64,000 nt of DNA from Rhodobacterales bacterium (lineage in GTDB: Bacteria > Pseudomonadota > Alphaproteobacteria > Rhodobacterales > Rhodobacteraceae), in NCBI GenBank assembly GCA_038233815.1, contig JBBSVE010000001.1, positions 7,341-71,340 of the forward strand, written 5' to 3'. Both the position numbers and the translations under genes were made by a program. Shown one piece after another: positions 1,179 to 63,315 of the stretch (position 1 is its first letter; each line of letters starts with the position of its first letter). The notes under the pieces are model-generated. The model ran no database searches and had not been told where the DNA came from. It worked only from the letters and a program-made list of their open reading frames with translations.

Positions 1179-2429
1179 ATGCACTATTCGGGTTTCAGGG
1201 TAATCAAGGAAGCGCTGACCGGTCACAAGGGCTGGAAGCCCGCGTGGCGCGATCCTGCACCCAAGGCACGCTACGACATCATCGTGGTGGGCGGCGGCGG
1301 GCACGGTCTGGCCACCGCCTATTACCTCGCGAAGATCCACAGCGAGGCGAGTGTCGCGGTGGTGGAGAAGGGCTGGATCGGCGGCGGCAACGTCGGCCGG
1401 AACACGACGATCGTCCGCTCGAACTACCTCCTCGACGGCAACGAGCCGTTCTACGAGCTGTCGATGAAGCTCTGGGAAGGGCTGGAACAGGATTTCAACT
1501 TCAACGCGATGGTGAGCCAGCGCGGTGTGCTGAACCTCTGCCATTCGGACGGGCAGCGCGACGCCTACCGCCGCCGCGGTAACGCGATGCGGATGAACGG
1601 GGTCGATGCGGAGCTTCTCGATACCGAAGGGGTGCGCAAACTCGCGCCGTTCCTCAATTTCGACAGCGCGCGGTTCCCGATCAAGGGCGGTCTCTTGCAG
1701 CCGCGCGGTGGGACCGTGCGGCACGACGCCGTGGCTTGGGGCTACGCACGCGGGGCGGATCGGCGCGGCGTCGATATCCTTCAGAACTGCGAGGTAATGG
1801 GCTTTCGGATCGAGGGCGGCAAGTGCCTCGGGATCGAGACCACGCGCGGCTTCATCGGCGCGGGCAAGGTCGGCGTCGCGGTCGCGGGTAATTCGGGGCA
1901 GGTGATGGCCAAGGCGGGCATCCGTCTGCCGATCGAGAGCCATGTGTTGCAGGCGTTCGTCTCCGAAGGGCTGAAGCCGCTGATCCCCAACGTCATCACC
2001 TACGGTGCGGGGCATTTCTACGTCAGCCAGTCCGACAAGGGCGGTCTGGTGTTCGGCGGCGATATCGACAGCTACAATTCCTACGCCCAGCGCGGCAACC
2101 TGCCGATGGTGGAGGATGTCTGCGAAGGCGGGATGAGCCTGATGCCGATGATCGGTCGCGCGCGGCTTTTGCGGATGTGGGGCGGGATCATGGACATGTC
2201 GATGGACGGCTCGCCGATCATCGACCGGACCGGGGTGGACGGGCTCTTCTTCAACGGCGGCTGGTGCTATGGCGGGTTCAAGGCGACGCCGGCCTCGGGC
2301 TGGTGCTTTGCGCACCTTCTGGCCACGGGCAAACCGCACGAGACGGCCACCGCCTACCGTTTCGACCGGTTCCGCACGGGGCTCATGATCGACGAAAAAG
2401 GCATGGGCGCGCAGCCCAACCTTCATTGA
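1179..2429 (+). CDS. soxB: heterotetrameric sarcosine oxidase beta-subunit family protein (context: N-methylglutamate dehydrogenase subunit MgdA)
   Basis: MHYSGFRVIKEALTGHKGWKPAWRDPAPKARYDIIVVGGGGHGLATAYYL is the family-typical N-terminus with a GGGGHG dinucleotide fold. GGAG lies upstream of ATG 1179. The track ORF starts 10 codons earlier, at 1149. Confidence 0.9.
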   Translation: MHYSGFRVIKEALTGHKGWKPAWRDPAPKARYDIIVVGGGGHGLATAYYLAKIHSEASVAVVEKGWIGGGNVGRNTTIVRSNYLLDGNEPFYELSMKLWEGLEQDFNFNAMVSQRGVLNLCHSDGQRDAYRRRGNAMRMNGVDAELLDTEGVRKLAPFLNFDSARFPIKGGLLQPRGGTVRHDAVAWGYARGADRRGVDILQNCEVMGFRIEGGKCLGIETTRGFIGAGKVGVAVAGNSGQVMAKAGIRLPIESHVLQAFVSEGLKPLIPNVITYGAGHFYVSQSDKGGLVFGGDIDSYNSYAQRGNLPMVEDVCEGGMSLMPMIGRARLLRMWGGIMDMSMDGSPIIDRTGVDGLFFNGGWCYGGFKATPASGWCFAHLLATGKPHETATAYRFDRFRTGLMIDEKGMGAQPNLH

Positions 2430-2450
2430 CCAACCTTTAGGACAGTCCCG

Positions 2451-2738
2451 ATGATCATTCCCCACCCGCTTCTGGGTCCGCGCGACGCGCAGGAATTCAC
2501 TTACATGGGCGACGAGAGCCTGATCGACCGGCCCGACTGGCAGGCCCCGGATGCGAACGAGTTGTTCCATGACTATCTCTACCTGCGCGACAATCCGGCG
2601 GGTCTGCACCGCGAGCTCTGGTATCACGAGCAGGGCGACCGGAGCTGGCTCGTCGTCACCCGCAACACGGTCACGCATGAGGTGATCTCCGCCGAACTCG
2701 CCCGCGATGTGGCGCGCGCAAAGGGACGCAGCCGATGA
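2451..2738 (+). CDS. soxD: sarcosine oxidase delta-subunit family protein (MgdB-like), cysteine-free
   Basis: 95 aa in the canonical position between the beta and alpha subunits. Delta-family motifs are present (FTYMGDESLIDRP, YLRDNPAG.HRE.W.H..G). Its stop overlaps the next start (ATGA at 2735-2738). Confidence 0.85.
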   Translation: MIIPHPLLGPRDAQEFTYMGDESLIDRPDWQAPDANELFHDYLYLRDNPAGLHRELWYHEQGDRSWLVVTRNTVTHEVISAELARDVARAKGRSR

Positions 2739-5689
2739 GCCCGAGCAACCGGATCGAAGGCGGCCTGATCGACCGCGCGCGCAGCGTCAGTTTCCGCTTC
2801 GACGGCCGGAGCTACACGGGCTTCGGGGGCGATACGCTGGCCTCCGCGCTGCTCGCCAACGGGGTCCGCCTGATGGGCCGGTCGTTCAAGTATCACCGTC
2901 CACGCGGCCCCCTCACCGCAGGGTCGGAAGAGCCGAACGCGCTGGTGGAGCTGCGCACCGGCGCGCGTCAGGAGCCGAACACCCGTGCCACCGTCGCGGA
3001 GCTGTTCGACGGTCTGGACGCGCGGAGCCAGAACCATGTGGGACCGCTGTCTTTCGACATGCTGGCGGTGAACGATCTGCTGTCGCCGTTCTTTGCCGCG
3101 GGGTTCTATTACAAGACCTTCATGTGGCCGAAAGCCTTCTGGGAAAAGCTCTACGAGCCGATGATCCGCCATGCCGCGGGCCTCGGCCGCCTGACGGGCG
3201 AGGATGATCCCGACCTCTACGACAAGGGCTTCCTGCACTGCGATCTGCTCATCATCGGGGCCGGGCCTACGGGTCTTGCCGCCGCTTTGACGGCGGGTCG
3301 GGCGGGTGCCGACGTGATCCTCGCCGACGAGGATTTCCTGCTCGGCGGACGGCTCAACGCGGAGACGCACGGGCTGGGCGCCATGTCCGGCGCCGACTGG
3401 GCGAGGGCGACGCTGGCGGAACTGGCAAGCCTGCCCAACGTCCGCGTGATGGCGCGCACCACGGTCATCGGGGCGATGGACCACGGCATCTTCGGCGCGC
3501 TGGAGCGCAACGCCGACCACCTCGCCACACCCGGTCCGGGCAAGCCCCGCCAGACGCTGTGGCGGATCTACACAAAGCGCAGCCTGCTCTGCGCCGGGGC
3601 GATCGAGCGGCCCATCGCGTTCCGGAACAACGACCGTCCGGGCATCATGCTCGGCTCCGCGATCCGCAGCTATGCCAACCGCTGGGCCGCCCTTCCGGGG
3701 CGCGAGGTGGCGATCTTCACCAACAACGACGACGGCCATCGGACGGCCGACGACCTTGTCGCCAAGGGCGTCCATATCGCGGCGGTGATCGACAGCCGCG
3801 CCGATGCGCCGGATTCCAAGCGTTACGAGGTGCTGAAAGGTGCCGTCGTCACGGATACGGCGGGGCGACTGGGCCTCAGCTCTGTTTCGGTGCGGATGGC
3901 GGGGGGGGAGACGCGGCACATTCCCTGCCTTGCCCTTGGTGTCTCCGGCGGGTGGAACCCGAACGTCCATCTCACCTGCCACCAGCGCGGGCGTCCGGTC
4001 TGGGACGCCGATCTTGCGGCCTTTGTTCCGGGCGGCACGCTTCCGCCGGGGATGTTGGTGGCGGGGGCATCAAAGGGCATCCTCTCCACCGCCGGCGCGC
4101 TGTCGTCTGGTGTTGAGGCCGCCATTCAGGTGCTCGACGGCCTTGGCATCGCCGCCAGATCCGTGGACCTGCCGGAGGCGGAGGATGCGCCGGTGCGGAT
4201 CACGCCGCTGTTCCACGTCCCGGGCAAGGGCCGTGCGTGGGTCGACCAGCAAAACGACGTGACGGTGAAGGATATCAAGCTCTCCCATCAGGAAGGCTAC
4301 ATCTCCGTCGAGCATCTCAAACGCTACACGACGCTCGGGATGGCCACCGATCAGGGCAAGACGGCGAATGTCACCGGCCTCGCCGTGATGGCGGAGATGA
4401 CCGGCAAATCCATCCCCGAGACCGGCACAACGATCTACCGCCCGCCTTATACGCCGGTGCCGATCGCCGCCTTCGCAGGCCGGTCGGCGGGCAAGGATTT
4501 CCGCCCCGTCCGCCTGCCGCCGAGCCACCATTTTGCCACCGAACGCGGCGCCGTCTTCGTCGAGGCCGGAATGTGGCTGCGCGCGCAGTGGTTCACGCGC
4601 GACGGCGAGACGACCTGGCGTCAGTCCGTCGACCGCGAGGTTCTGGCCACGCGCAAGTCCGTCGGCATCTGCGACGTGACGACGCTCGGCAAGATCGACG
4701 TGCAGGGCGTGGATGCTGCTGATTTCCTCAACCGCGTCTATGCCAACCCGTTCGCCAAGCTGGCCGTCGGCAAGATCCGCTACGGAATCATGCTGCGCGA
4801 GGACGGCATCGTCATGGATGACGGCACCACCGCGCGGCTGGCGGAGGATCATTTCGTCCTGACGACGACCACCGCCAATGCCGTGGGCGTCTATCGCCAC
4901 ATGGAGTTCTGTCGCCAGTGCCTCTGGCCCGATCTTGACGTGCAGATCATTTCCACCACCGAGGCGTGGGCGCAGTATTCGGTAGCGGGGCCGAACGCGC
5001 GCAGGCTGTTGCAAAAGATCGTCGACCCCGCCTGCGACATCTCCAACGAGGCGTTTCCGTACATGGGATGCGGCGAGATCACCGTCTGCGGCGGGCTTCG
5101 CGCAAGGCTCTTCCGGATCTCCTTCTCCGGCGAGCTGGCGTTCGAGATCGCAGTGCCGACGCGCTACGGCGACGCGCTCGTGCGGCGCATGATGGAGGCT
5201 GGGGCACAGTTCGACGCGGTGATCTACGGCACCGAGGCGCTCGGCGTGATGCGGATCGAGAAAGGCCATGCGGCGGGCAACGAGCTGAACGGCACGACGA
5301 GCGCCGTGAACCTCGGGATGGGCGGCATGGTTTCGAAGAAGAAGGACTCCATCGGCTCCACCCTGTCGGAGCGCGAGGGGATGAACCGCAAGGACGAGTT
5401 CGGCCTTGTGGGCTTCCGCCCGGTCGATCCCGCGGACAGGTTCGAATCCGGCTCCCATCTGATCGTGCGGGAAGAGGAGGCGACGATCGCCAACGATCAG
5501 GGCTATCTCACCTCCGTCGCCTTCTCTCCGAACCTCGGCTACATGATCGGCCTCGGATTCCTGAAGAATGGCGCGGCCCGCAAGGGCGAGGTCCTGCGTG
5601 CCGTGAACCCGGTGCAGAATGCCGAGACGCTGGTCGAGGTGGTCAGCGCCCATTTCATCGATCCCGAGGGGGAGCGTCTTCGTGCATGA
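2735..5689 (+). CDS. soxA: sarcosine oxidase alpha-subunit family protein (MgdC-like)
   Basis: 984 aa. N-terminal SFRFDGRSYTGFGGDTLASALLANGVRLMGRSFKYHRPRG, a GAGPTGLAAAL dinucleotide fold, and a C-terminal GcvT-like folate-binding region. Confidence 0.92.
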   Translation: MSPSNRIEGGLIDRARSVSFRFDGRSYTGFGGDTLASALLANGVRLMGRSFKYHRPRGPLTAGSEEPNALVELRTGARQEPNTRATVAELFDGLDARSQNHVGPLSFDMLAVNDLLSPFFAAGFYYKTFMWPKAFWEKLYEPMIRHAAGLGRLTGEDDPDLYDKGFLHCDLLIIGAGPTGLAAALTAGRAGADVILADEDFLLGGRLNAETHGLGAMSGADWARATLAELASLPNVRVMARTTVIGAMDHGIFGALERNADHLATPGPGKPRQTLWRIYTKRSLLCAGAIERPIAFRNNDRPGIMLGSAIRSYANRWAALPGREVAIFTNNDDGHRTADDLVAKGVHIAAVIDSRADAPDSKRYEVLKGAVVTDTAGRLGLSSVSVRMAGGETRHIPCLALGVSGGWNPNVHLTCHQRGRPVWDADLAAFVPGGTLPPGMLVAGASKGILSTAGALSSGVEAAIQVLDGLGIAARSVDLPEAEDAPVRITPLFHVPGKGRAWVDQQNDVTVKDIKLSHQEGYISVEHLKRYTTLGMATDQGKTANVTGLAVMAEMTGKSIPETGTTIYRPPYTPVPIAAFAGRSAGKDFRPVRLPPSHHFATERGAVFVEAGMWLRAQWFTRDGETTWRQSVDREVLATRKSVGICDVTTLGKIDVQGVDAADFLNRVYANPFAKLAVGKIRYGIMLREDGIVMDDGTTARLAEDHFVLTTTTANAVGVYRHMEFCRQCLWPDLDVQIISTTEAWAQYSVAGPNARRLLQKIVDPACDISNEAFPYMGCGEITVCGGLRARLFRISFSGELAFEIAVPTRYGDALVRRMMEAGAQFDAVIYGTEALGVMRIEKGHAAGNELNGTTSAVNLGMGGMVSKKKDSIGSTLSEREGMNRKDEFGLVGFRPVDPADRFESGSHLIVREEEATIANDQGYLTSVAFSPNLGYMIGLGFLKNGAARKGEVLRAVNPVQNAETLVEVVSAHFIDPEGERLRA

Positions 5690-6248
5690 CCTGAAAAGCC
5701 TGACCCCGCTTGGCGCCGCGGCGCCGAGGGTCGACCGGATCGGCGCGGTGTCCATCGCCGAGGTGACGGACATGGCGCTGGCGTCGCTTTCCGCCCGGAG
5801 CGGGAAGGTGGAGGCGTTGGGGACGGCCATGACGGCCCTGACCGGTGCCAAGCTTCCCGAGCCGGGGACATGGGTGGACGGCGCGCCTTGGTCGGTGATC
5901 TGGACCGGACCGGAGCAGTGGTTCGTCGAGGCGCCCTTCGCCAGCCATGAGGACATCTCCCGCGCGCTGAAGGACGCGGTGGGGGAGGCGGCCTCCGTCA
6001 CCGAACAGACCGACGGCTGGGTCCGGTTCGATCTGGAAGGCGCAGGAACCGTTGACATGCTGGAGCGGCTCTGCGCCGCCCCGTCCCGGCGGATGGAGGC
6101 GGGAATGGCCACCCGCACCGTGATCGAGCATATGGGGTGTCTCGTCATCTGCCGTGCTGCGGCCGAGCGGTTCAGCATCCTCGCCCCCCGGTCCTACGCG
6201 CGGTCGCTGCATTATGGGCTGACCGGCGCCGCGCGCTCTATCGCCTGA
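5682..6248 (+). CDS. soxG: sarcosine oxidase gamma-subunit family protein (MgdD-like)
   Basis: Fourth gene of the conserved B-D-A-G order. GTG at 5682 overlaps the soxA stop (GTGCATGA). The track ORF's upstream extension from 5619 lies inside soxA. Confidence 0.8.
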   Translation: MHDLKSLTPLGAAAPRVDRIGAVSIAEVTDMALASLSARSGKVEALGTAMTALTGAKLPEPGTWVDGAPWSVIWTGPEQWFVEAPFASHEDISRALKDAVGEAASVTEQTDGWVRFDLEGAGTVDMLERLCAAPSRRMEAGMATRTVIEHMGCLVICRAAAERFSILAPRSYARSLHYGLTGAARSIA

Positions 6249-6253
6249 ACGGC

Positions 6254-7276
6254 TCAGACCGACGGCAGGGGTCGGTTGTCCTCCACCCGGAAGCGGTTGA
6301 TGGTCCGGCGATCCTCCGCCGGGGTCACGCCGAACTCCGCGCGGTAATGGCGCACCAGCGGGGGCACCGTCTCATACCCCACGCCGGCCGCGATCCGCAC
6401 CATCGGATCGCGGGTATAGAGGACGAGCTGTCTTGCCGCCTTCATCCGCAGCGTCCGGTAGTAGCGCGACGGACTTTTGCCGGTGGCTTTCTTGAACAAC
6501 CGTTCCAGCTGGCGCGGTGAGATGCCGACATGAGCTGCCACATCCTCCATCGGAACGGGATCGGCAAGGCGGTCGCCCAGAAGGTCGATGGCCTTGGCGA
6601 CGGGCGGGACAAGCGTGTCGGCGGTGTCGGGACGGTGGAAGGTCGGCGTCTTCTGCCGCACGCCGCGCCCGCGCACGACCGGGTGCTGGAACCAGCAGGC
6701 CACCTCCGTCGCGATGTCAGGACCAAGGCGCCTCTCGATGAAGTCGAGCATCAGGTCGAACGCCGCGTCGGCCCCGGATACGGTGTAGAACGGATGGTCG
6801 AAGAGGATCACGTCCGAGGATACGCGCAAATCGGGGAAAGCCTGCGTGAAGGCGGTCTCGTAGCACCAGTGGACGGAGACGAGGCGACCGTCCAGCAGGC
6901 CCGACCGCGCCAGGGGGAAGACGCCGCCGCTGACGCCGCCCAATGCCGTGCCGTGACGTGACAGGCGGCGCAGATGGCCCTCCGACGGTTTCCGGTCAGT
7001 GAACGTCGCGGCCGGGCTGCTCAGCAGGAACAGGTAGTCGATCCCCTCCGCCATTGAGAGCGGCAGGTCCGGGTCGAACGTCACGGCGGCGCTGGAGGTT
7101 ACGCGCGCGCCGGTTTCGGAGACGATGGTCCATCCGAAAGCCTTGCGGTTCGCGATCTCGTTCGCGGCGCGCAAAGGCTCGATCATCGAGGTCAGGCAGG
7201 CCATCGGAAAGCCGGGGAAGATCAGGAAGCCGACTTCCGTGATGCGGTTGACTTGCAGTTCACTCTCAGGAAACAT
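6254..7276 (-). CDS. GlxA-family (DJ-1/PfpI-like N-domain + AraC HTH) transcriptional regulator
   Basis: N-terminal FLIFPGFPMACLTSMIEPLRAANE (GATase1-like fold) and a C-terminal AraC-type HTH (ISPRQLERLFKKATGKSPSRYYRTLRMKAARQLV). Same architecture as the GbdR/CdhR/SouR class. Start is ambiguous between 7276 (MFPESE) and 7294. Confidence 0.85.
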   Translation of the reverse strand: MFPESELQVNRITEVGFLIFPGFPMACLTSMIEPLRAANEIANRKAFGWTIVSETGARVTSSAAVTFDPDLPLSMAEGIDYLFLLSSPAATFTDRKPSEGHLRRLSRHGTALGGVSGGVFPLARSGLLDGRLVSVHWCYETAFTQAFPDLRVSSDVILFDHPFYTVSGADAAFDLMLDFIERRLGPDIATEVACWFQHPVVRGRGVRQKTPTFHRPDTADTLVPPVAKAIDLLGDRLADPVPMEDVAAHVGISPRQLERLFKKATGKSPSRYYRTLRMKAARQLVLYTRDPMVRIAAGVGYETVPPLVRHYRAEFGVTPAEDRRTINRFRVEDNRPLPSV

Positions 7277-7304
7277 GCGACGATGCGGACCCATGGAGGT
7301 TTCG

Positions 7305-7934
7305 ATGACAACGCCCGTTCTCGCACAGAACCCCCACAAGGTCACGGAGGAGCGTGAGAACGTCCTCGAAGTCGCCATCGGTCGTGAGGTGCGCGCCTTT
7401 CGCCATCAAAGCGCGCTGACCATTGCGGATCTCTCCGCGCGCACGGGTCTGTCGATTGGGATGCTGTCGAAGATCGAGAATGGCAACACCTCGCCGTCGC
7501 TCTCCACCCTGCAGGCGCTGGCCCATGCAATGAGCGTGCCGCTCACCTCCTTCTTCCGGCGGTTCGAGGATGTGCATGTCGCGATCCACACCAAATCCGG
7601 CGAAGGTGCGGAGACGACGCGTCGCGGCACGCGTGCGGGGCACCAGTATAACCTTCTGGGCCATATCGGCGCCAACACGAGCGGTGTGGTGGTGGAGCCC
7701 TACCTCATCACGCTCACATCGGATTCGGATGTGTTCCCGACCTTCCAGCACGACGGGATCGAGATGCTCTACATGCTGGAGGGCGAGGTCGACTATCGCC
7801 ACGGGCACTACGTCTACCGGCTGGAACCGGGCGATACGCTCTTTTTCGACGCCGACGCGCCGCACGGGCCGGAAACCCTGACAAAGCTTCCGGCGCGCTA
7901 TCTTTCGGTCATCTCCTATGTCCAGACCCGGTAG
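7305..7934 (+). CDS. XRE-family HTH + cupin domain transcriptional regulator (PuuR-like architecture)
   Basis: HTH_3 motif (IGREVRAFRHQSALTIADLSARTGLSIGMLSKIENGNTSPSLSTLQALA) plus a C-terminal cupin (GEVDYRHG...GDTLFFDADAPHG). GGAGG lies 6 nt before ATG 7305. Confidence 0.85.
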   Translation: MTTPVLAQNPHKVTEERENVLEVAIGREVRAFRHQSALTIADLSARTGLSIGMLSKIENGNTSPSLSTLQALAHAMSVPLTSFFRRFEDVHVAIHTKSGEGAETTRRGTRAGHQYNLLGHIGANTSGVVVEPYLITLTSDSDVFPTFQHDGIEMLYMLEGEVDYRHGHYVYRLEPGDTLFFDADAPHGPETLTKLPARYLSVISYVQTR

Positions 7935-7937
7935 GGA

Positions 7938-8978
7938 TCAGTCCGCGAAGATGCCTGGGGTCGTGGGCGCGCCGTCGTCGTATCGCGACAGGTAATCGAC
8001 GATCATCGTTCGGTTCCGCGCAAAGCCCTTGTAGGTGGCAAGCTCGTCGGGCAGGTCGCGCAGGACGCGGTGCAGGCGGCGGCCCCATTTCGGCACCGTC
8101 ACCAGATCGTCGAGCCGGATCAGGTAACAGCGGATCGGGAACACCATCGCGTTGGACCGCGGCAGGCGGAAGAAGGTCTGCAACTCGACCCGCAGATACT
8201 GCTTCTGGCCTACGTTGTCGGGCGTCACGCTGGCCTTCTGCACGCCCCATACGTGATAATTCTCGGGGCTGGTGTCCAGAAGCGGATTGACCGTCATCGT
8301 CCAGTTCAGCCGCCGCACGGGCGCACCTTGCTGGATGTTGAGAAGAAACTTCAAGGCGCGCTTGAAGATCCCCATTTCGTGCGCCAGCGGCACCGGCGCG
8401 TGCCATTCGAAGAAGTTCATCCCGATGTCGAAATCGAGCGACCAGTCCGCCTGCGTCGTGACCGTGCCCGCATCCATCCAGAGGTTGTCGTCGCGCTGGT
8501 CCAGCAACGCGAAATCGCCCTGCGTCTGGCGTGTAATATATTCCATCGGACCGCAGGGCAGGGTGGCCTCGTCGAGGAAGGTGAAGCGTTGCTCGATGCC
8601 CAGCGGGCGGTTGATCCAGTGCCAGCGGTCGCCGTCGCGGTGAAGCTCGAAAAGATCGGGATAATCCTGCGCCTTCGCGACCATGATGAGTTCCAGCAGG
8701 TCCCAGCCCGCCAGCGTCATGTGCGGCAGCGTTTGGCAACGCAGCGGATCGGCGGCGAGAACGCGGGCGCGGTCCTTCATCTCCGACACGTAGTGCTCGT
8801 CCACGTCGAACGCATGCTCGAAGATCGAGCCTTCCCGGCGCGGGACATGCGCCTCCATGTTGACGGAATACATGTAGCCGTCCTCGTGGAACGGGAACGG
8901 ATAGCGTTGGATCGCCCAGTCGGAGTTGCGGAAGGTGAAGGTGTCGTGAAACGTCTCGTCGCGGAACTGGATCGTCAT
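7938..8978 (-). CDS. dmmC: DUF3445 / heme-dependent oxidative N-demethylase alpha-like subunit (dimethylamine monooxygenase DmmC)
   Basis: 346 aa. Last gene of a D-A-B-C operon whose subunit sizes (about 22, 35 and 40 kDa) and order match the described dmmDABC. Sequence recognised as DUF3445-type (MTIQFRDETFHDTFTFRNSDWAIQRYPFPFHEDGYMY). Confidence 0.75.
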   Translation of the reverse strand: MTIQFRDETFHDTFTFRNSDWAIQRYPFPFHEDGYMYSVNMEAHVPRREGSIFEHAFDVDEHYVSEMKDRARVLAADPLRCQTLPHMTLAGWDLLELIMVAKAQDYPDLFELHRDGDRWHWINRPLGIEQRFTFLDEATLPCGPMEYITRQTQGDFALLDQRDDNLWMDAGTVTTQADWSLDFDIGMNFFEWHAPVPLAHEMGIFKRALKFLLNIQQGAPVRRLNWTMTVNPLLDTSPENYHVWGVQKASVTPDNVGQKQYLRVELQTFFRLPRSNAMVFPIRCYLIRLDDLVTVPKWGRRLHRVLRDLPDELATYKGFARNRTMIVDYLSRYDDGAPTTPGIFAD

Positions 8979-8988
8979 TCTGTCGCTC

Positions 8989-9951
8989 CTATCGGTCGAT
9001 CACGAGGGACGGACCCTCGAAGCGGGACACGCAGGGCATGATCTTGCGCCCGCCCGCCTTTTCCTCGTCGGTGAGCCAGTGGTCGCGGTGGAGGAACGTG
9101 CCCTCATGGCTCAGCACATCGGTTTCGCACTGCCCGCAGGCCCCACCACGGCAGAGATAGGGTGGTTCCAGCCCCGCAGCCTCCAGTGCCTCGAGAAAGC
9201 TCTGGTTCTCCCCCACCGTGAGGGTCCGGCCGGACCTGGCCAGCGTCACCTCGAAAGGCTTGCCGGGCTGGGGTGCCAGAAACTCCTCATGGTGCACGGT
9301 GGCGTCGGGCCAGCCGAGGCCGCGCGCCGTGTCGCGGACCCAGTCGATCATGCCCTTGGGTCCGCAGACATAAAGATGCGTGCCGAGGGGCTGCCCGGTC
9401 AAAAGCGCGTCGAGGTCGATCTTCTGGCCCATATCGTTGAGGTAGAGGCGCACATGGCCGGGATATTGCGCGGCCAGATCCTCGGCATAGGCACCGATCG
9501 CCGCAGACCGCACGGAATAGTGCAGCTCGAAATGGCCATCCGTCGCACCGAGCTGCTGCATCTGCGCGATAAACGGCGTTATGCCGATCCCGCCCGCGAT
9601 CATCAGGTGTTTCTTCGCCCGGTGATCCAGCGGGAAGAGGTTGACCGGCATGCTCAGCACCATCCGGTCCCCGGCATTCACGGTGCGGTGCATGAAGAGC
9701 GACCCGCCACGCCCCGCCTCGTCGCGCCGGACGGAGATCATGAAGCCGGAAAGGTCGTGTGGGTCCGACATCAGCGAATAGGGGTTGAGCCGCGTGACCT
9801 CGCCGTCGCGCATCTCGATCACCGTATGCGCGCCGCCGGAGAAGGCGGGCATCGGCGCGCCGTCCGTCCGCTCGAAGCGGAAGCGTTTCACGAGATCGTT
9901 GACCTCGATAACCTCGGCCACGGTCACGTCGATCTTGCGGGAGGCGGTCAT
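8989..9951 (-). CDS. dmmB: PDR/VanB-type FMN/NAD(P)H reductase with C-terminal plant-type 2Fe-2S ferredoxin (DmmB)
   Basis: Internal start MTASRKIDVTVAEV at 9951 overlaps the dmmA stop (ATGA). Flavin reductase fold (RLNPYSLMS, IAGGIGITP) and a C-terminal CRGGACGQCE...C cluster motif. The 482-aa track ORF is over-extended. Confidence 0.85.
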   Translation of the reverse strand: MTASRKIDVTVAEVIEVNDLVKRFRFERTDGAPMPAFSGGAHTVIEMRDGEVTRLNPYSLMSDPHDLSGFMISVRRDEAGRGGSLFMHRTVNAGDRMVLSMPVNLFPLDHRAKKHLMIAGGIGITPFIAQMQQLGATDGHFELHYSVRSAAIGAYAEDLAAQYPGHVRLYLNDMGQKIDLDALLTGQPLGTHLYVCGPKGMIDWVRDTARGLGWPDATVHHEEFLAPQPGKPFEVTLARSGRTLTVGENQSFLEALEAAGLEPPYLCRGGACGQCETDVLSHEGTFLHRDHWLTDEEKAGGRKIMPCVSRFEGPSLVIDR

Positions 9952-10553
9952 GGGTAGATCGCTTTCACGGGCGGGATGAGGCCCGGATCCTCGGCATCGA
10001 CGCGCACGCCCTGAAACGCGGCGAGCCGGTGCGAGTAATGGTCCCGGACATAAAGGTGTAGCCCGCAATGGGCGCAGACGAAGGGATCGGTCGCGACGTC
10101 CTCGGTGATTCCCTTGCAATGGACGCACTGCATCCGCCGTGCGGTCGATCCGCGATGCTCGCGCTGGATCGCCTCCATGGGAAAGCCCGCGATCACCGCC
10201 TCCTGCATTGCCTGACCGATGAAGCCTTCGGTCCCGGCGATGTAGATCCGGAGACCCATGTGCGCGTCCGTCAGCGCCTTGCGAAGAACCGGCACCGCGG
10301 CCAGATAGGTCGGGGCCACGTAAAGCTGCGCGGGCGCCAGCGCTTCTACCCTTTCCCGTCCTGCCGCGTGATCCCCGGCGACGTAGATCACATGCGCGCC
10401 GGCCATCAGATCCGGTGCGGCCTCTGCGAGATCGCACAAGGCCTTCACGCCTTCACCGCTCGCCAGCATCAGATGCGCCGTGCCGGGCCCGGCCGCGAGC
10501 GCCGCATAGACAGGCCGGCTCTCGATCGATTTTGGAAACTGGAATGCGGGCAT
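9948..10553 (-). CDS. dmmA: dimethylamine monooxygenase subunit DmmA-family protein
   Basis: 201 aa, positioned between the GcvT-like and reductase genes. C-terminal CVHC-N13-CAHC four-cysteine motif. ATG at 10553. Confidence 0.7.
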   Translation of the reverse strand: MPAFQFPKSIESRPVYAALAAGPGTAHLMLASGEGVKALCDLAEAAPDLMAGAHVIYVAGDHAAGRERVEALAPAQLYVAPTYLAAVPVLRKALTDAHMGLRIYIAGTEGFIGQAMQEAVIAGFPMEAIQREHRGSTARRMQCVHCKGITEDVATDPFVCAHCGLHLYVRDHYSHRLAAFQGVRVDAEDPGLIPPVKAIYP

Positions 10554-10622
10554 CGTCCGGACATCCCCCTTTGCTGATACGGGATCGAACCGGCGGACGC
10601 TTCGGCCCGCCGGTCTTGCGGC

Positions 10623-11762
10623 CTACCCTTTCGCGGTGCGGCGCTTCTTGTCGGTGTCGTAGAACGGCATCGAATGGGTCGTGGCGGCGATGTCGCCATG
10701 CGTCCCACATTTCACCGTCAGCTTCGTGCCGTCGTTGGCGCAATCCACGGGCAGGCGGGCGATGGCGATCGTGTGCTCGTTCAGCGGCGAATACATCGCC
10801 TGCGTCACGACCCCCACCTTTTCGTCGCCCCGGAATACCGGTGCGCCGTTGCCGGGCGCGTTCTTGCCCTCCAGCGTCAGACCCCAGATCTTGAAGCGTT
10901 CGTGGCCCTTCAGGCGGTAATGCTCCTCCGCGCCGCGAAAGCCAGTCTTGCCGGGCGAAACGGTGAAGTCGAGACCCAGTTCCCACAGCGTATCGCCGGG
11001 GCCTTCGTCGGCAAAGGGATACATCTCCGAATTGTCGTAGGGGAAAAACAGCAGGTAGCTCTCGGTGCGGAGCAGATCGAGCGTGGTGAAGCGGCAGGGT
11101 ATGATGCCCATGTCCTTTCCCTCGTCGAGGATGCGGTCCCAGATCCGCCCCGCCTCCTGCGCGCGGCAGAAGATCTCGTAGCCACGCTCCCCGGTATAGC
11201 CGGTGCGCGAGATCATCACCGGAAAGCCGAAGAGCTGCGTCTGCATGTGGCTGAAGTAGTTGAGATTGCGGATGCCCTCGACATGCTTTTGCAGGAAATC
11301 GACGGCGAGCGGGCCTTGCAGCGAGAGGTCGTGCAGATTGTCGTCAAAGCGGACGGACACATCGCGACCGTTCGCCGCCATGGTCAGCTGCTCGAACCCC
11401 GCGCCCGCGCCGTGGACCACCATCCAGGCGTTCGGCCCGGTGCGGTAGATCACACAATCGTCGACGAACTTGCCCGCGTCGTTCAGCATCGCGGCATAGG
11501 TCGACCGACCCGGCATGATCTTCTCGACGTTGCGGGTGGTCGCGCGGTCGATGACGTGGCTCGCACCCGCGCCGGTGATGTGGACCTTCTTCAGCCCCGA
11601 CACGTCCATCAGCCCCGCCTTCGTGCGGATCGCGAGATATTCCTGTTCCGGGTCGCCGGTCGTGTAGGACCAGGCCGTGCCCATGCCGCTCCAGTCCTCG
11701 AGCTCCGATCCCATGGCCCGGTGACGATCGGCCAGGGCCGAAATCCTCCAAGATGCCGTCAT
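10623..11762 (-). CDS. dmmD: GcvT-family aminomethyltransferase-like, tetrahydrofolate-binding protein (DmmD)
   Basis: MTASWRISALADRHRAMGSELEDWSGMGTAWSY... shows glycine-cleavage T-protein family features (GLMDVSGLKKVHITG, GYTGERGYEIF). GAGGAG RBS precedes ATG 11762. The track ORF is extended to 11927. Confidence 0.85.
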   Translation of the reverse strand: MTASWRISALADRHRAMGSELEDWSGMGTAWSYTTGDPEQEYLAIRTKAGLMDVSGLKKVHITGAGASHVIDRATTRNVEKIMPGRSTYAAMLNDAGKFVDDCVIYRTGPNAWMVVHGAGAGFEQLTMAANGRDVSVRFDDNLHDLSLQGPLAVDFLQKHVEGIRNLNYFSHMQTQLFGFPVMISRTGYTGERGYEIFCRAQEAGRIWDRILDEGKDMGIIPCRFTTLDLLRTESYLLFFPYDNSEMYPFADEGPGDTLWELGLDFTVSPGKTGFRGAEEHYRLKGHERFKIWGLTLEGKNAPGNGAPVFRGDEKVGVVTQAMYSPLNEHTIAIARLPVDCANDGTKLTVKCGTHGDIAATTHSMPFYDTDKKRRTAKG

Positions 11763-11855
11763 TGAAGTCTCCTCAAGCAATTTGTGGTCCCGGAGGTCCG
11801 GTTCCGGTTCTATGCGGCGCCCGCACACCATGGCCCCTAAACGCCGACGTGGGGC

Positions 11856-11884
11856 GTATAGTTTTCGCGGCCAAAGCCGTCGAA
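11856..11884 (-). promoter_or_regulatory. candidate sigma70-type promoter for dmmDABC
   Basis: The minus strand reads TTCGAC-N17-CTATAC, close to the alphaproteobacterial CTTGAC-N17-CTATAT housekeeping consensus. It lies about 90 nt upstream of the dmmD ATG. Confidence 0.25.
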
Positions 11885-11958
11885 ATCCTGAGCCTGTGTG
11901 CTTCGGCTGGCGGACCAGAGCGCCCATTCGGCCGACACCAGAGAGCCCACGCGCTGCT

Positions 11959-11987
11959 TTGTCAAATATTTCTTTGAGGAAATAATT
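11959..11987 (+). promoter_or_regulatory. candidate mgsA promoter (TTGTCA-N16-AATAAT) with embedded inverted repeat operator
   Basis: This is the only AT-rich patch in the 294-bp divergent dmmD/mgsA spacer. -35 TTGTCA is at 11959-11964 and -10 AATAAT at 11981-11986. An imperfect inverted repeat AAATATTTC-N6-GAAATAATT (8/9) spans the spacer. Confidence 0.35.
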
Positions 11988-12056
11988 ATTCCCTTATTGT
12001 TGCCGGACGCTGCGCCGACTGCTAGCGTAAGCCATCCTCATGCAGGGAATCGAGAT

Positions 12057-12953
12057 ATGTGCGGCATCGTCGGACTCTTCCTCAAGGACAAATCGCTGGA
12101 GCCGCAGTTGGGCGCCATGCTGACAGACATGCTCGTCACCATGACCGACCGCGGCCCCGACAGTGCGGGCATCGCGATCTATGGCGGCGCGGGCGACGGT
12201 CGGGCCAAGATGACGATCCAGTCCTCCGACCCGGATAGTGATTTCACCGGTCTGGATGGCATCCTCGGCGACGCGATCGGATCGCCCGTGTCGATCCGTG
12301 TAAAGAGCTCCCATGCCGTGCTCGACATTCCCGAAGGCAAGGCCGACGCCGTGCGCGCCTCCCTGCGCGGAAGTCATCCCGACGTGAAGGTGATGAGCGT
12401 CGGCGACAGCCTCGAGATCTACAAGGAGGTGGGTCTGCCCAAGGACGTGGCGGCGCGCTTCGATCTGGCCTCGATGGGCGGCACGCACGGGATCGGCCAT
12501 ACGCGGATGGCGACCGAATCCGCCGTGACGACGATGGGGGCGCACCCGTTCTCCACCGGTTCCGACCAGTGCCTCGTGCACAACGGCTCGCTGTCGAACC
12601 ACAACAGCTTGCGCCGGATGCTGGCGCATGAGGGCATCTTCACCGAGACGATGAACGATACCGAGGTCGGCGCGGCCTACCTCACATGGAAAATGAAAAC
12701 CGGCTCCACGCTGGGCGAGGCGCTCGAAAGCAGCCTCGACGATCTGGACGGGTTCTTCACCTTCGTTGTCGGTACCCATGACGGGTTCGGTGTGGTGCGC
12801 GATCCCATCGCCTGCAAGCCTGCCGTGATGGCGGAAACCGACCGGTATGTGGCCTTCGGGACCGAATATCGCGCGCTCGTGAACCTGCCGGGCATCGACG
12901 CCGCCCGCGTGTGGGAGCCCGAGCCCGCCACCGTCTATTTCTGGAAGCACTGA
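12057..12953 (+). CDS. mgsA: class-II glutamine amidotransferase, N-methylglutamate synthase subunit A
   Basis: Starts MCGIVGLF (Ntn Cys2, GltB N-domain type). First of three genes that together resemble a split glutamate synthase large subunit. The track ORF is over-extended from 11898. Confidence 0.85.
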   Translation: MCGIVGLFLKDKSLEPQLGAMLTDMLVTMTDRGPDSAGIAIYGGAGDGRAKMTIQSSDPDSDFTGLDGILGDAIGSPVSIRVKSSHAVLDIPEGKADAVRASLRGSHPDVKVMSVGDSLEIYKEVGLPKDVAARFDLASMGGTHGIGHTRMATESAVTTMGAHPFSTGSDQCLVHNGSLSNHNSLRRMLAHEGIFTETMNDTEVGAAYLTWKMKTGSTLGEALESSLDDLDGFFTFVVGTHDGFGVVRDPIACKPAVMAETDRYVAFGTEYRALVNLPGIDAARVWEPEPATVYFWKH

Positions 12954-12958
12954 ACGCC

Positions 12959-13648
12959 ATGCAGACATTCGACCTCGAGGCGCAGGGCCTGCGCGCCCTG
13001 AACTCCGCCCTCCACGCACTGAAGGGCCAGACCAACGAGACGGCGTGGGAGGTGATCAACCCCAAGGGCGCGCATTCCATCGCGGTGGCGCTCGATGCGC
13101 CGATCGAGGTGACGGTGCGCGGGCCGACGGGCTATTACTGTGCCGGCATGAACAAGCAGGCGACGGTGCGGGTCGAGGGCTCCGTCGGGCCGGGCGTCGC
13201 GGAAAACATGATGTCGGGCGCGGTGATCGTGGACGGCAATGCCTCGCAATATGCCGGGGCCACCGGGCGCGGCGGGCTGCTGGTCATTAAGGGCAACGCC
13301 AGTTCGCGTTGCGGCGTGTCGATGAAAGGCATCGACATCGTGGTGCATGGCAATATCGGCCATATGTCCGCGTTCATGGCGCAGTCGGGCAACCTCGTCG
13401 TGCTGGGCGATGCGGGCGACGCCCTTGGCGACAGCCTCTACGAGGCGCGGCTCTTCGTGCGCGGATCGGTCAAATCGCTCGGCTCGGACTGTATCGAGAA
13501 GGAGATGCGGCCGGAGCATCTGGAGATCCTAGGCGATCTGCTGAAAGCAGGGGAGGCGGATCATCTGGCCCGTCCCGAGGATTTCAAACGCTATGGCTCG
13601 GCCCGCAAGCTCTATACCTTCAATATCGACAATGCGTCGGACTACTGA
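12959..13648 (+). CDS. mgsB: GXGXG-motif (GltB C-terminal domain-like) protein, N-methylglutamate synthase subunit B
   Basis: Beta-helix GXGXG-type repeats (EGSVGPGVAENMMSG, GNASQYAGATGRGG, GNASSRCGVSMKG, GNIGHMSAFMAQSG, GDAGDALGDS). ATG at 12959, 6 nt after the mgsA stop. Confidence 0.85.
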   Translation: MQTFDLEAQGLRALNSALHALKGQTNETAWEVINPKGAHSIAVALDAPIEVTVRGPTGYYCAGMNKQATVRVEGSVGPGVAENMMSGAVIVDGNASQYAGATGRGGLLVIKGNASSRCGVSMKGIDIVVHGNIGHMSAFMAQSGNLVVLGDAGDALGDSLYEARLFVRGSVKSLGSDCIEKEMRPEHLEILGDLLKAGEADHLARPEDFKRYGSARKLYTFNIDNASDY

Positions 13649-13654
13649 GGTTCC

Positions 13655-14980
13655 ATGACCGAATTTCCCAAGACCCCCCCGCGCTACTCCGCCACCTTCA
13701 CCCCTGCCGTCAACGCCGAGATCCGGCGCGCGGCGGCGTCGGGCATCTATGATATCCGGGGCGGTGGCACGAAACGCCACCTGCCGCATTTCGACGACCT
13801 GCTGTTCCTCGGCGCCTCGATCAGCCGCTATCCGCTGGAAGGCTACCGCGAGAAATGCGCGACTGACGTATGGCTCGGCACGCGGTTCGCGAAAAAGCCG
13901 ATCCATCTGGAGATCCCCGTGACCATCGCGGGCATGTCCTTTGGCGCTTTGTCGGGGCCTGCGAAAGAGGCATTGGGGCGCGGCGCGTCGGAGGCCGGAA
14001 CCTCCACCACCACCGGCGACGGCGGCATGACGGAGGAGGAGCGCGGCCATTCCCGCACCCTCGTCTACCAGTATCTGCCGAGCCGCTACGGCATGAACCC
14101 GGACGATCTGCGCCGCGCCGATGCGATCGAGGTCGTAGTGGGGCAGGGCGCCAAACCCGGCGGCGGCGGAATGCTTCTGGGACAGAAGATCTCCGATCGC
14201 GTGGCGAAGATGCGCAACTTGCCCAAGGGCATCGACCAGCGTTCGGCCTGCCGTCACCCCGACTGGACCGGCCCGGACGATCTGGAAATCAAGATCGCCG
14301 AGTTGCGCGAGATCACGGATTGGGAAAAGCCGATCTACGTCAAGATCGGCGGCTCGCGGCCCTATTACGACACGGCGCTGGCGGTGAAGGCCGGTGCGGA
14401 CGTGGTGGTCCTCGACGGGATGCAAGGCGGCACGGCGGCGACGCAGGATGTGTTCATCGAGCATGTCGGCATGCCGATCCTCGCCTGTATACCGCAGGCC
14501 GTGAAGGCATTGCAGGAACTGGGGATGCACCGGAAGGTGCAACTGATCGTGTCGGGCGGCATCCGAACCGGCGCGGATGTGGCGAAGGCGATGGCGCTCG
14601 GGGCCGATGCGGTGTCGATCGGGACCGCCGCGCTGATCGCACTCGGCGACAACGATCCGAAATGGGAGGCTGAATATCAGAAGCTCGGCACCACGGCGGA
14701 CGCCTATGACGACTGGCACGAGGGCCGCGACCCTGCGGGCATCACCACGCAGGATCCCGAACTTGCGGCGCGGTTCGATCCGGTGCTCGGCGGGCGGCGT
14801 CTGAAGAATTACCTCAAGGTCATGACACTGGAGGCGCAGACCATAGCGCGCGCCTGCGGCAAGAACCACCTCCACAACCTGGAGCCGGAAGACCTCTGCG
14901 CCCTGACGATGGAGGCGGCGGCGATGGCGCGTATTCCTCTCGCCGGCACTGACTGGTATCCGGGCAAGGCTGGATTCTGA
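13655..14980 (+). CDS. mgsC: FMN-binding glutamate synthase family protein, N-methylglutamate synthase subunit C
   Basis: 441 aa with GltB FMN-domain features (GAKPGGGGML, VLDGMQGGTAA, SGGIRTGADVAKAMALGADAV). Confidence 0.88.
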   Translation: MTEFPKTPPRYSATFTPAVNAEIRRAAASGIYDIRGGGTKRHLPHFDDLLFLGASISRYPLEGYREKCATDVWLGTRFAKKPIHLEIPVTIAGMSFGALSGPAKEALGRGASEAGTSTTTGDGGMTEEERGHSRTLVYQYLPSRYGMNPDDLRRADAIEVVVGQGAKPGGGGMLLGQKISDRVAKMRNLPKGIDQRSACRHPDWTGPDDLEIKIAELREITDWEKPIYVKIGGSRPYYDTALAVKAGADVVVLDGMQGGTAATQDVFIEHVGMPILACIPQAVKALQELGMHRKVQLIVSGGIRTGADVAKAMALGADAVSIGTAALIALGDNDPKWEAEYQKLGTTADAYDDWHEGRDPAGITTQDPELAARFDPVLGGRRLKNYLKVMTLEAQTIARACGKNHLHNLEPEDLCALTMEAAAMARIPLAGTDWYPGKAGF

Positions 14981-31506: not shown

Positions 31507-31534
31507 ATGTCTGATAATCTATATTATGTAATCG
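31507..31534. other. dif-like XerC/XerD chromosome dimer resolution site (candidate)
   Basis: 28-mer AATGTCTGATAA-TCTATA-TTATGTAATC(G). The right arm TTATGTAA matches the conserved XerD-arm core of E. coli (TTATGTTAAAT) and B. subtilis (TTATGTAAACT) dif. The left arm ends in GATAA. There is ATAAT/ATTAT dyad symmetry around a 6-bp centre. It sits in an AT-rich 51-bp spacer between convergent genes and coincides with the GGGNAGGG polarity switch. Confidence 0.55.
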
Positions 31535-44371: not shown

Positions 44372-45379
44372 ATGAGCCTCACGATCCCGTCCGCCCCATT
44401 CCCCGCCGCCCGCTTCCGCCGTCTGCGCCGCACCGATGCGCTGCGCCGCTTGGCACAGGAAAACGTGCTGAGCGTCAACGACCTGATCTGGCCGGTCTTC
44501 GTGACCGAAGGCGAGCGGGTCAGCGATCCGGTCACCTCCATGCCCGGCGTGGCACGCCAGTCCATCGACAACGTGGTCCGCCGGGCGGAGGAGGCGGCAT
44601 CGCTCGGCATCCCCGCGATCTGCCTCTTTCCCTACACCGATCCCGACCTCAGGACGGAAACCTGCGAGGAGGCGTGGAACCCCGAGAACCTCATCAACCG
44701 CGCGATCCGGGCGATCAAGGCCCGCGTGCCGGAGGTTGCGGTGATGACCGACATCGCGCTCGACCCCTATAATGCGCTGGGCCATGACGGGCTGGTGCAG
44801 GACGGGCTGATCGTGAACGACGAGACGGTGGAGGCGCTGGTCCGCATGGCGGTGGCGCAGGCGGACGCAGGCGCCGACATCCTCGGCCCCTCCGACATGA
44901 TGGACGGCCGCATCGGGGCGATGCGCAGCGCGCTGGAGGCTGCGGGCCACCGGGACGTAGCGATCCTGAGCTATGCGGCGAAATACGCCTCTGCCTTTTA
45001 CGGTCCGTTCCGGGATGCGGTGGGGGCGGGCACGCGGCTTGTCGGGGACAAAAAGACCTACCAGATGAACCCCGCCAATTCAGACGAGGCGCTGCGGCTT
45101 GTTGCGCGCGATCTGGCGGAGGGGGCTGACATGGTGATGGTGAAGCCCGGGATGCCCTATCTCGACATCGTGCGGCGGGTGAAGGATCGCTTCGGCGCGC
45201 CGACCTCCGCCTATCAGGTGTCGGGCGAATATGCGATGTTGCGGGCGGCGGCGCAGAACGGCTGGATCGACGGCGAGCGCGCCATGGTTGAAAGCCTGAT
45301 CGCGTTTCGCCGGGCAGGGTGCGATGCAGTGCTGACCTATTTCGCCGCCGATATGGCGCGCCTTTTGCGCGACGGCTGA
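44372..45379 (+). CDS. hemB: porphobilinogen synthase (delta-aminolevulinate dehydratase), Asp-rich metal-site type
   Basis: MSLTIPSAPFPAARFRRLRRTDALRRL start. DIALDPYNALGHDG stands in place of the Cys-rich zinc motif. The active-site lysine region VMVKPG is present. Confidence 0.93.
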   Translation: MSLTIPSAPFPAARFRRLRRTDALRRLAQENVLSVNDLIWPVFVTEGERVSDPVTSMPGVARQSIDNVVRRAEEAASLGIPAICLFPYTDPDLRTETCEEAWNPENLINRAIRAIKARVPEVAVMTDIALDPYNALGHDGLVQDGLIVNDETVEALVRMAVAQADAGADILGPSDMMDGRIGAMRSALEAAGHRDVAILSYAAKYASAFYGPFRDAVGAGTRLVGDKKTYQMNPANSDEALRLVARDLAEGADMVMVKPGMPYLDIVRRVKDRFGAPTSAYQVSGEYAMLRAAAQNGWIDGERAMVESLIAFRRAGCDAVLTYFAADMARLLRDG

Positions 45380-46062: not shown

Positions 46063-46063
46063 G

Positions 46064-57853: not shown

Positions 57854-57947
57854 GGTCTCGTTCCCGCATTGGGGGGCGTCGTTGCCGCTGCCCCCGGATC
57901 TGGCGCGCCGCCGCCATGGGCGAAAGAGACACGCGTCTGTGGCGGTT

Positions 57948-59309: not shown

Positions 59310-59337
59310 CCGTCGTCTCCGATATTGTGCCGGGGCG

Positions 59338-61445: not shown

Positions 61446-61609
61446 CGGGCCTAGTCCTGCCCGGGACGGATTACAAACGCCTGTCACGCAATATGGCATG
61501 GTTTTCGCGCAAACGCCCAAAGATCAGGCATTCCGCCGACCGTTTGCACGCGATTGTATTGCGCGCCCCCGCAGCCTACCAAGGCGGATCAATGCGCCGG
61601 AGCCCCCGA

Positions 61610-62770
61610 ATGACCGTCACCGCTATCATCGTTGCCGCCGGACGCGGACTGCGTGCGGGCGGCGAGGTGCCAAAGCAGTGGCAGGCGATCGGGGATCGGT
61701 CGGTCGTGGCCCACAGTCTCACGTGCTTTCGGACCCATCCCGGCGTGGACCGGACGCTCCTCGTGATCCATCCCGACGATGCCGGACGCGCGGACGGCCT
61801 CGGCTTTCGGGTGGAGACGGTCTTCGGGGGTGTGGACCGTGCCGCCTCGGTGCGCGCAGCGCTGGAGCATCTGGCAGGCGATCCGCCCGATCACGTGCTG
61901 ATCCATGACGGTGCGCGGCCCTTCGCGAGTGCGGGACTGATCGGCCGGATGATCGCGGCGCTTGCGACGTCCGATGCAGCGGCTCCGGCGCTGGCGGTGA
62001 CGGACGCGCTCTGGCACGGTGCGGAGGGGCGGGTGCGGGGGGTGCAGGACCGCGATGGTCTTTGGCGCGCGCAGACGCCGCAGGCGTTCCGCTTCGCGCC
62101 GATCCTCGCCGCGCACCGCGCCCATCCCGGCGGGGCGGCAGACGACGTGGCCGTCGCCCGCGCGGCAGGGCTTGACGTGGCCATCGTCGAGGGGGAGGAG
62201 GCGAACGTGAAGCTCACCCTGCCCGGAGACGTGGAGCGGGCGACACAGCGGATGGGACCGACCATGGACGTGCGCTGCGGGAACGGCTTCGATGTCCACG
62301 CCTTTGGCGACGGCCATCATGTCACGCTCTGCGGCGTGGACATCCCGCACGACCGGGCGCTGGAAGGTCACTCGGACGCCGATGTGGGCATGCACGCGCT
62401 GACCGATGCAATCTACGGCGCGCTCGCGCTGGGCGATATCGGGCAGCATTTCCCTCCCTCCGATCCGCAATGGAAAGGGGCCGCCAGTCGCATTTTCCTC
62501 GCCCATGCGGCGGCAGAGGCGCGCGCGCGCGGCTACACCCTGACCCACGCCGATGTGACGCTGATCTGCGAGCGTCCGAAGATCGGCCCGCACGCCCCCG
62601 CGATGCGCGCGGCATTGGCGGAGATCATGGGCATCGCGGTGGGCCGCATCTCGGTCAAGGCCACCACGTCGGAACGACTGGGCTTCACCGGGCGGGAGGA
62701 GGGGATCGCGGCCATGGCCACCGCGTCGCTGGTCGGACCGGGCGAGGCCGCGCCAGAGGCGGACCCGTGA
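61610..62770 (+). CDS. ispDF: bifunctional MEP cytidylyltransferase / MEcPP synthase
   Basis: IspD N-half ([19 protein letters not shown]) fused to an IspF C-half (GNGFDVHAF...[15 protein letters not shown]). Alternative ATG at 61592. Confidence 0.92.
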
Positions 62771-63315
62771 TGCCGCACCCCGTCCGACCAGGCAAACCGT
62801 CTTCGGCGGCCAGCCGCATAATCTCGATCTTCTTCGGGGTTGGTCATCTGCGCCCTGCCCCCGGCACCTGGGCCTCGGCCGCTGCGACGGCGCTGGGGGT
62901 GCTGTTCTACCGGCTCGGGCAGTTTCCGCTGCTCTTCGCCGCCACCGCCGTGGCGACCGTCGCGGGCTTCTGGGCCTGCGGGCGCGAATTGCGCGGGCGC
63001 CCCGGCGTCGATCCGTCCGAGATTGTGATCGACGAGGTGGCGGGTCAGTGGACCGCACTCCTGTTTCCCGCCTTCGGCTTCTGGGTCATGGTCCCCGATG
63101 CGACCGTGATCGCGCCTGCTGGGTGGATCACCGCCTTTCTCGCCTTTCGCCTCTTCGACATCTGGAAGCCGTGGATCATCGGCCGGGCGGACCGGCGGAC
63201 GGACCCCGCGGGGGTAATGCTCGATGACCTGCTCGCGGGCGTCTGCGCGGGTCTCGTGACGATCCTGCTGGCGGGGATCTTCCACATCGCGATCCTGCCC
63301 ATGGTGATCCGGTGA
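62770..63315 (+). CDS. pgpA: phosphatidylglycerophosphatase A
   Basis: FFGVGHLRPAPGTWAS...IDEVAGQW...FRLFDIWKPW...DDLLAG are PgpA motifs. The ATG overlaps the ispDF stop (TGATG). Confidence 0.88.
   Translation: MPHPVRPGKPSSAASRIISIFFGVGHLRPAPGTWASAAATALGVLFYRLGQFPLLFAATAVATVAGFWACGRELRGRPGVDPSEIVIDEVAGQWTALLFPAFGFWVMVPDATVIAPAGWITAFLAFRLFDIWKPWIIGRADRRTDPAGVMLDDLLAGVCAGLVTILLAGIFHIAILPMVIR

Follow-up and report, generated by a model that had tools for sequence, protein, structure and literature searches.

FtsK-orienting motifs and dif sites in Proteobacteria

The closest described counterpart of the locus considered here is the FtsK-KOPS-XerCD-dif system of Escherichia coli, Vibrio cholerae and Pseudomonas aeruginosa, in which the FtsK-orienting polar sequence (KOPS) is the octamer 5'-GGGNAGGG-3'. 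The identical octamer, with GGGCAGGG as its dominant variant, is found in a 64,000-nucleotide stretch of DNA from a Rhodobacterales bacterium (GenBank assembly GCA_038233815.1, contig JBBSVE010000001.1, positions 7,341 to 71,340 of the forward strand), which is referred to in its entirety as the window and in which positions are counted from the first letter. Like that system, the window shows restriction of the motif to the leading strand, convergence of two arms on a 28-bp dif site of 11-6-11 layout at the point where GC skew switches, and a recombinase of the XerD type. Unlike that system, its host is an alphaproteobacterium with 67% GC and the motif is far denser, at about one copy per 2.3 kb. 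The arms of its dif site also diverge from the gammaproteobacterial consensus, and 17 of the 28 positions are identical to E. coli dif when compared by eye. Very probably the window is the dif and terminus region, where the two replichores meet, of a Paracoccaceae main chromosome (Rhodobacter/Cereibacter/Gemmobacter group). MatP/matS and Tus/Ter are enterobacterial systems and are not expected in this lineage.

Among Alphaproteobacteria, the polarity of KOPS inverts at dif in Paracoccus, Sinorhizobium and others, Agrobacterium having been mapped as well (PMC13342612), and the same inversion is described in Azospirillum (bioRxiv 10.64898/2026.09.14.751567). Predictions of dif are available for Rhodobacter and Dinoroseobacter (Kono 2011, PMC3025954), and the dif site of D. 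shibae has been described (PMC7901474). The published alphaproteobacterial maps show the same polar motif and the same inversion at dif as the window, whose own genome lies outside them. A difference concerns the placement of dif, which in the window lies within 320 bp of the skew maximum, whereas in several Paracoccus replicons it lies away from the coverage minimum from which the terminus is inferred (PMC13342612).

In most Proteobacteria GGGCAGGG is a polar sequence that resembles the architecture-imparting sequences (AIMS) (PMC3384302). The motif of the window is comparable to AIMS as introduced by Hendrickson and Lawrence (PMC5993296, PMC3384302), being likewise a skewed octamer of the leading strand that flips at the terminus. 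By definition, both the skew and the abundance of AIMS rise along an entire replichore in the direction of the terminus; within the 64 kb of the window a weak central peak in density is seen when copies are counted per 8 kb.

The architecture is therefore known and of the textbook kind, and because the inversion of GGGNAGGG at dif has already been published for Alphaproteobacteria it leaves the understanding of chromosome segregation unchanged. Its value is that of a landmark in an unannotated draft genome, for which it fixes the position of dif, the replichore boundary and the identity of the leading strand to either side; it also adds a GC-rich lineage to those in which the polar guide motif takes the form of GGGNAGGG (mainly GGGCAGGG). 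In practice the locus may be used for annotation, for orienting assembly contigs and as a positive control for the detection of replichores by eye from sequence.

Convergence of the polar motif on a dif site

An exhaustive search of both strands of the window recovered 28 copies of GGGNAGGG. To the left of 30.7 kb all 13 copies lie on the top strand and none on the bottom strand; this array (1474-30733, +) is directed rightward to dif, with copies starting at 1474, 8556, 14141, 17233, 18090, 19990, 20909, 21381, 25554, 26541, 26766, 29206 and 30726. To the right of 32.8 kb 14 copies lie on the bottom strand and a single one on the top strand. The 14 (32842-62860, -) are directed leftward to dif and read on the top strand as CCCTNCCC, starting at 32842, 34189, 34863, 38325, 39117, 47150, 47776, 48577, 50758, 51781, 58201, 61141, 62217 and 62853. 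The sole wrongly oriented, or non-permissive, copy is a GGGCAGGG at 45312-45319 (+) within the plus-strand gene for porphobilinogen synthase (hemB). Convergent copies outnumber divergent ones by 27:1, the convergent score is maximal for any pivot between 30731 and 32841, an interval of 2.1 kb, and the polarity is uniform over about 30 kb per arm, up to both ends of the window.

A preliminary description of the window had placed a flip in polarity at about 31.5 kb, and the exhaustive count brackets that position. All 24 motif coordinates that it listed proved real and on the correct strand, and the direction of the bias stands, whereas its ratio of 23:1 has to be replaced by 27:1, the left-arm copies at 8556, 20909, 26766 and 29206 having been missed. 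Comparable numbers on the two strands, the outcome that had been named as telling against it, were not seen on either side.

Inside the switch interval lies the 28-bp dif site (ATGTCTGATAA-TCTATA-TTATGTAATCG, 31507-31534, +), identified by a position weight matrix (PWM) and by synteny as the site for resolution of chromosome dimers by XerC and XerD. It is composed of a putative XerC arm (ATGTCTGATAA, 31507-31517, +), a central region of 6 bp (TCTATA, 31518-31523, +) and a putative XerD arm (TTATGTAATCG, 31524-31534, +). The PWM was constructed from 11 published sites, taken from the supplement of Kono 2011 together with E. coli dif and none of them from the window. The site at 31507 scores 38.8 bits, the next independent site 11.8 bits (128 kb over both strands; z = 8.1), and it is the only outlier in the window. 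It sits inside a gap of 51 bp that separates two convergent genes and has a GC content of 37%, the flanks having 62-68%; this gap is one intergenic gap within the 2.1-kb switch interval. The site shares 20 of 28 positions with the published prediction for Rhodobacter sphaeroides ATCC 17025 and 22 of 28 with that for chromosome II of R. sphaeroides 2.4.1, and the core TCTGATAA-N6-TTATGTAAT is common to all three. A search of the window with E. coli dif allowing up to three mismatches gave no match, because the site has diverged too far from the gammaproteobacterial sequence.

GC skew amounts to +0.015 in the left half of the window and -0.041 in the right half. The change of sign falls at 31800-31900 in the skew profile, with the maximum of cumulative G-C at 31850, about 320 bp from dif, so that the comparison with GC skew which had been proposed for the motif switch shows the two to coincide. 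A skew that passes from positive to negative, together with motifs that converge, points to a terminus; at a replication origin the motifs would diverge, and this candidate is ruled out.

The point on which dif and KOPS converge and the long-term switch in skew are thus located here. The leading strand is the top strand in the left half and the bottom strand in the right half, and GGGNAGGG is enriched about 3-fold on it. With GC skew as the proxy, the replication forks may also meet physically at this locus. The earlier proposal that the KOPS-type switch marks a terminus is borne out by the presence of dif in the switch interval, by the coincidence with the skew, by the convergence itself and by the corresponding loci of five relatives.

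Conservation of the locus in relatives

The left neighbour of dif is a gene for an FAD enzyme of the aminoacetone oxidase family (30318-31493, +; TIGR00275, 379 bits) that ends 13 bp before the site and is conserved in this position in relatives. The closest other homologues of its product are at most 76% identical and belong to Pseudorhodobacter, Cereibacter changlensis and Gemmobacter. Five orthologous loci were compared, those of C. changlensis (complete 3.49-Mb chromosome), Pseudorhodobacter turbinis (2.56 Mb), Paracoccaceae bacterium Fryx2 (3.3-Mb contig), Gemmobacter aquatilis and a metagenome-assembled genome (MAG) from ENA (2.4-Mb contig). Each of the five relatives, which represent at least four genera, has a single strong dif site (25-42 bits with the same PWM) on the downstream side of its FAD gene orthologue, and the orientation of the site is the same throughout. 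Its start is no more than 40 bp from the 3' end of the FAD gene in C. changlensis, Fryx2, G. aquatilis and the ENA MAG; in P. turbinis dif lies 1.1 kb from the FAD gene, past an inserted HTH_38 gene. Across the five loci GGGNAGGG converges on dif by 45:2.

Gene order is retained on both sides of the junction. The block CNNM - xerD - unknown protein - aroK - aroB - ... - FAD gene - dif - ... - tsf - rpsB is kept in C. changlensis, Fryx2 and the MAG, and in the MAG the same permease gene follows directly after dif. Conservation of the block across the junction argues against both a chimeric assembly and an inversion of local extent, and it places the locus on replicons of main-chromosome size; an assembly chimera is ruled out by this synteny. 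A wider scan with the dif-core pattern TCTGATAATN5TTATGTAAT, taking one genome per species, returned at least 119 loci, which were examined as fixed 8-kb blocks, and among the matches listed GGGNAGGG converges by 30:1 in at least ten other Rhodobacterales contigs with the dif core.

At the P. turbinis locus (L123, CP039964.1; about 6.8-12.3 kb) the HTH_38 insertion is accompanied by a transposase and an integrase (DUF6538 + Phage_integrase), which replace the upstream aroKB/xerD block. These insertions indicate traffic of mobile elements at the dif locus.

Main chromosome or secondary replicon

The core housekeeping content of the window (rpsB, tsf, aroB, mfd, hemB, hflX, trkH, ispDF, pgpA and tRNAs including tRNA-Gln) is counted as support for a dif and terminus region of the main chromosome. 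Several points weigh against this interpretation. Polarity and skew were read within 64 kb only, and dif can differ from the physical termination point or coverage minimum (PMC13342612). Among the approximately 37 larger open reading frames (ORFs) of the window that were scanned no ftsK or xerC was found, and in the literature searched there was no experimental report of binding of the FtsK gamma domain to GGGNAGGG in Rhodobacterales. Lastly, Paracoccus keeps these housekeeping genes on a second chromosome of about 1.7 Mb, away from dif.

The last point bears on the alternative that the window is the dif and terminus region of a secondary chromosome (chromid) instead of the main one. Second replicons of about 1.7 Mb, which the plasmid database includes, carry both the aroK-aroB/xerD block and the rpsB-tsf block in P. 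versutus and P. denitrificans, and large secondary replicons of Alphaproteobacteria also possess dif with an inversion of KOPS (PMC13342612). In the closer relatives, however, the whole syntenic block is found on records of 2.4-3.5 Mb, including the complete C. changlensis chromosome. The plasmid and chromid database contained only Paracoccus segments of 69-81% identity, each inside a replichore and none at a switch, so that Paracoccus is unsuitable as a model for the synteny of the locus. The two Paracoccus blocks lie apart, each in a uniformly polar stretch of GGGNAGGG (17:1 and 9:1, on a single strand) and without dif. Since the two halves are separated and no polarity switch accompanies them, Paracoccus is rearranged relative to the clade of the window, and the location of these genes in Paracoccus means that the main-chromosome identity is drawn from the closer relatives only. 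A chromid terminus is therefore very unlikely.

In P. denitrificans (L121; NZ_CP141053.1, 336316-377094, on the 1.73-Mb second replicon) rpsB-tsf opposes the polarity of GGGNAGGG (9 top, 1 bottom) and also lies on the strand opposite to positive GC skew. Transcription of this highly expressed pair would then run head-on against replication, whereas rpsB-tsf of the window is co-oriented with it.

Polarity, composition and coding strand

A second alternative holds that the polarity is a by-product of replication-linked GC skew acting on any G-rich word, in which case it would have neither a function specific to the motif nor a link to FtsK. The skew does change sign at the locus, and other G-rich octamers lean in the same direction. 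In an unbiased search for skew among 13,101 octamers with one N and at least 10 copies, GGGNAGGG ranks second, behind the overlapping G-rich word GGGGCNGG, which is the most skewed of them (48:9) and is skewed in all four of its N variants. Among exact words, with 31520 taken as the pivot, the strongest skew belongs to GGGCAGGG for octamers and to GGGCAGG for heptamers. Such an unbiased search for skewed octamers had been suggested beforehand as a check, and its outcome favours the motif.

The contribution of base composition can be gauged from the 56 ways in which six G, one A and one N can be ordered. The 55 arrangements other than GGGNAGGG give 595:306 when pooled, which is 66% convergent and is explained by the GC skew of the two halves. 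Of the 56, GGGNAGGG has the strongest skew, and its 27 convergent copies out of 28 depart from the 66% of the G-rich background with P = 1.4e-4; the simple binomial probability of the skew is P = 2e-7.

Frequency as well as orientation exceeds what composition would give. Dinucleotide shuffles of the window contain 13.8 +/- 3.9 copies of GGGNAGGG, about half of the 28 observed, and with this the earlier statement that the density is what base composition predicts is refuted. Markov models of order 1, 3 and 5 were trained separately on each half, and thus already include the skew. On the permissive strand these models expect 3.2-5.4 copies on the left, where 13 are observed, and 3.3-4.9 copies on the right, where 14 are observed. 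The non-permissive strand holds 0 and 1 copies with 1.3-2.4 expected, which in neither case is a significant depletion under the models. From the permissive excess and the non-significant counts on the wrong strand it follows that the signal is mainly an enrichment of about 3-fold on the leading strand, which persists even against the order-5 model.

The coding strand does not account for the bias either. Sense and antisense were assigned from rough gene calls based on GC content at third codon positions (GC3) together with family searches, and relative to the local gene 14 copies are sense and 14 antisense, with both orientations present on each arm. A coding-strand or codon artefact is ruled out by this balance, and the independence from coding strand that had been claimed at the outset is confirmed together with its examples. 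Thus 26541 lies in the xerD-like gene and 21381 in a gene for an RskA anti-sigma factor, both on the minus strand, and on the plus strand 39117 lies in a gene for an MFS transporter, 47150, 47776 and 48577 in one and the same gene, 62217 in ispDF and 62853 in pgpA.

The skew and the frequency of GGGNAGGG hence exceed the effects of GC skew, oligonucleotide composition and coding strand, and the switch falls on dif in the window, in the five relatives and in at least ten other contigs. That the polarity is a mere by-product of skew is highly improbable. Hardly credible at all is the notion that the flip comes from a chimeric assembly, from the breakpoint of a local inversion or from a block acquired horizontally: the view is limited to 64 kb, and in Azospirillum inversions spanning dif are known to add further switches in polarity (bioRxiv 10.64898/2026.09.14.751567), but a canonical and unique dif lies exactly at the switch, GC skew turns at the same point, gene order over the junction is kept in four genera including the permease after dif in the MAG (L126), and both arms are uniformly polar for about 30 kb to the ends of the window.

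A possible role for FtsK

From the mechanism known in E. coli, V. cholerae and P. aeruginosa (PMC2680272, PMC2533119, PMC3384302), FtsK would be expected to read GGGNAGGG in this organism too. The translocase, anchored at the septum, would load on GGGNAGGG in one direction through its gamma domain and would pump DNA until it encounters XerC and XerD bound at dif, where it would stop. There it would activate XerD, leading to the resolution of chromosome dimers and assisting in the unlinking of sister chromosomes at division.

The plasmid and chromid collection was searched by tblastn with E. coli gamma and then with the C-terminus of Shinella FtsK, and no Paracoccaceae FtsK gamma was among the matches listed. 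The FtsK gamma helix of Shinella sp. (L127; NZ_CP069303.1) reads GYNRAASLIERME, the E. coli equivalent being GYNRAARIIEQME. Residue R1300 of E. coli FtsK, which we take to be a contact with KOPS, is replaced by Ser in Shinella, and an Arg is found four residues later. GGGNAGGG is nonetheless reported to be polar in Sinorhizobium (PMC13342612), which like Shinella belongs to the Rhizobiaceae.

Genes around dif

The right neighbour of dif, the gene for a DASS/SLC13-type anion permease (31545-33356, -) identified by profile search, ends 10 bp after the site. About 5 kb from dif lies a gene for a tyrosine recombinase of the XerD type (25612-26574, -), which was recognised by both profile and structure matches. 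Its product scores 324 bits with the NCBIfam tyrosine recombinase model PRK00283 (cutoff 279). It scores higher with the XerD model (299 bits) than with the XerC model (250 bits), both values being under the respective equivalog cutoffs. The best match among solved structures is E. coli XerD (1A0P, 4e-55), followed by a fusion of XerD with FtsK gamma (5DCF). A second Xer gene was not found among the ORFs of the window that were scanned.

As in the window, xerD lies about 5 kb from dif in three of the relatives (C. changlensis, L122; Fryx2, L124; the MAG, L126). To our knowledge, XerCD systems are generally without linkage between xerD and dif, which is typical only of single-recombinase systems such as XerS/difSL and XerH/difH. 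The dif locus of this clade could be genetically anchored, with selection maintaining the linkage, for instance by local delivery of XerD or by an accessory factor, which is an unlikely proposition; the linkage may instead be inherited synteny near the terminus.

In the same three relatives a protein of about 490-520 aa without a Pfam match is encoded beside the integrase-family gene, and it is preceded by an ORF of 44-45 aa. In the window the corresponding position is taken by an ORF of 515 aa (26571-28118, -) that has an N-terminus resembling a signal peptide and no Pfam or NCBIfam match. Its stop overlaps the start of xerD by 4 bp, and the two appear to be translationally coupled.

The left arm also contains, at 1149-14980, a cluster for one-carbon and methylated-amine catabolism. 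It comprises the sarcosine oxidase genes soxB/(D)/A/G, a GbdR-like regulator and a protein resembling haem-dependent oxidative N-demethylase, as well as a GcvT-like aminomethyltransferase and ORFs related to glutamine amidotransferase and GltB.

Similar sites in Acidobacteriota

The scan with the dif-core pattern also returned at least 48 loci from Acidobacteriota (Pyrinomonadaceae, Chloracidobacterium and Blastocatellia), which have a near-identical dif (GCGTCTGATAATAGAGATTATGTAAT) with the core found in Rhodobacterales. Over 364 kb, and among the matches listed, GGGNAGGG converges on the acidobacterial dif by 24:2, which suggests that the same polar motif is used in Acidobacteriota.

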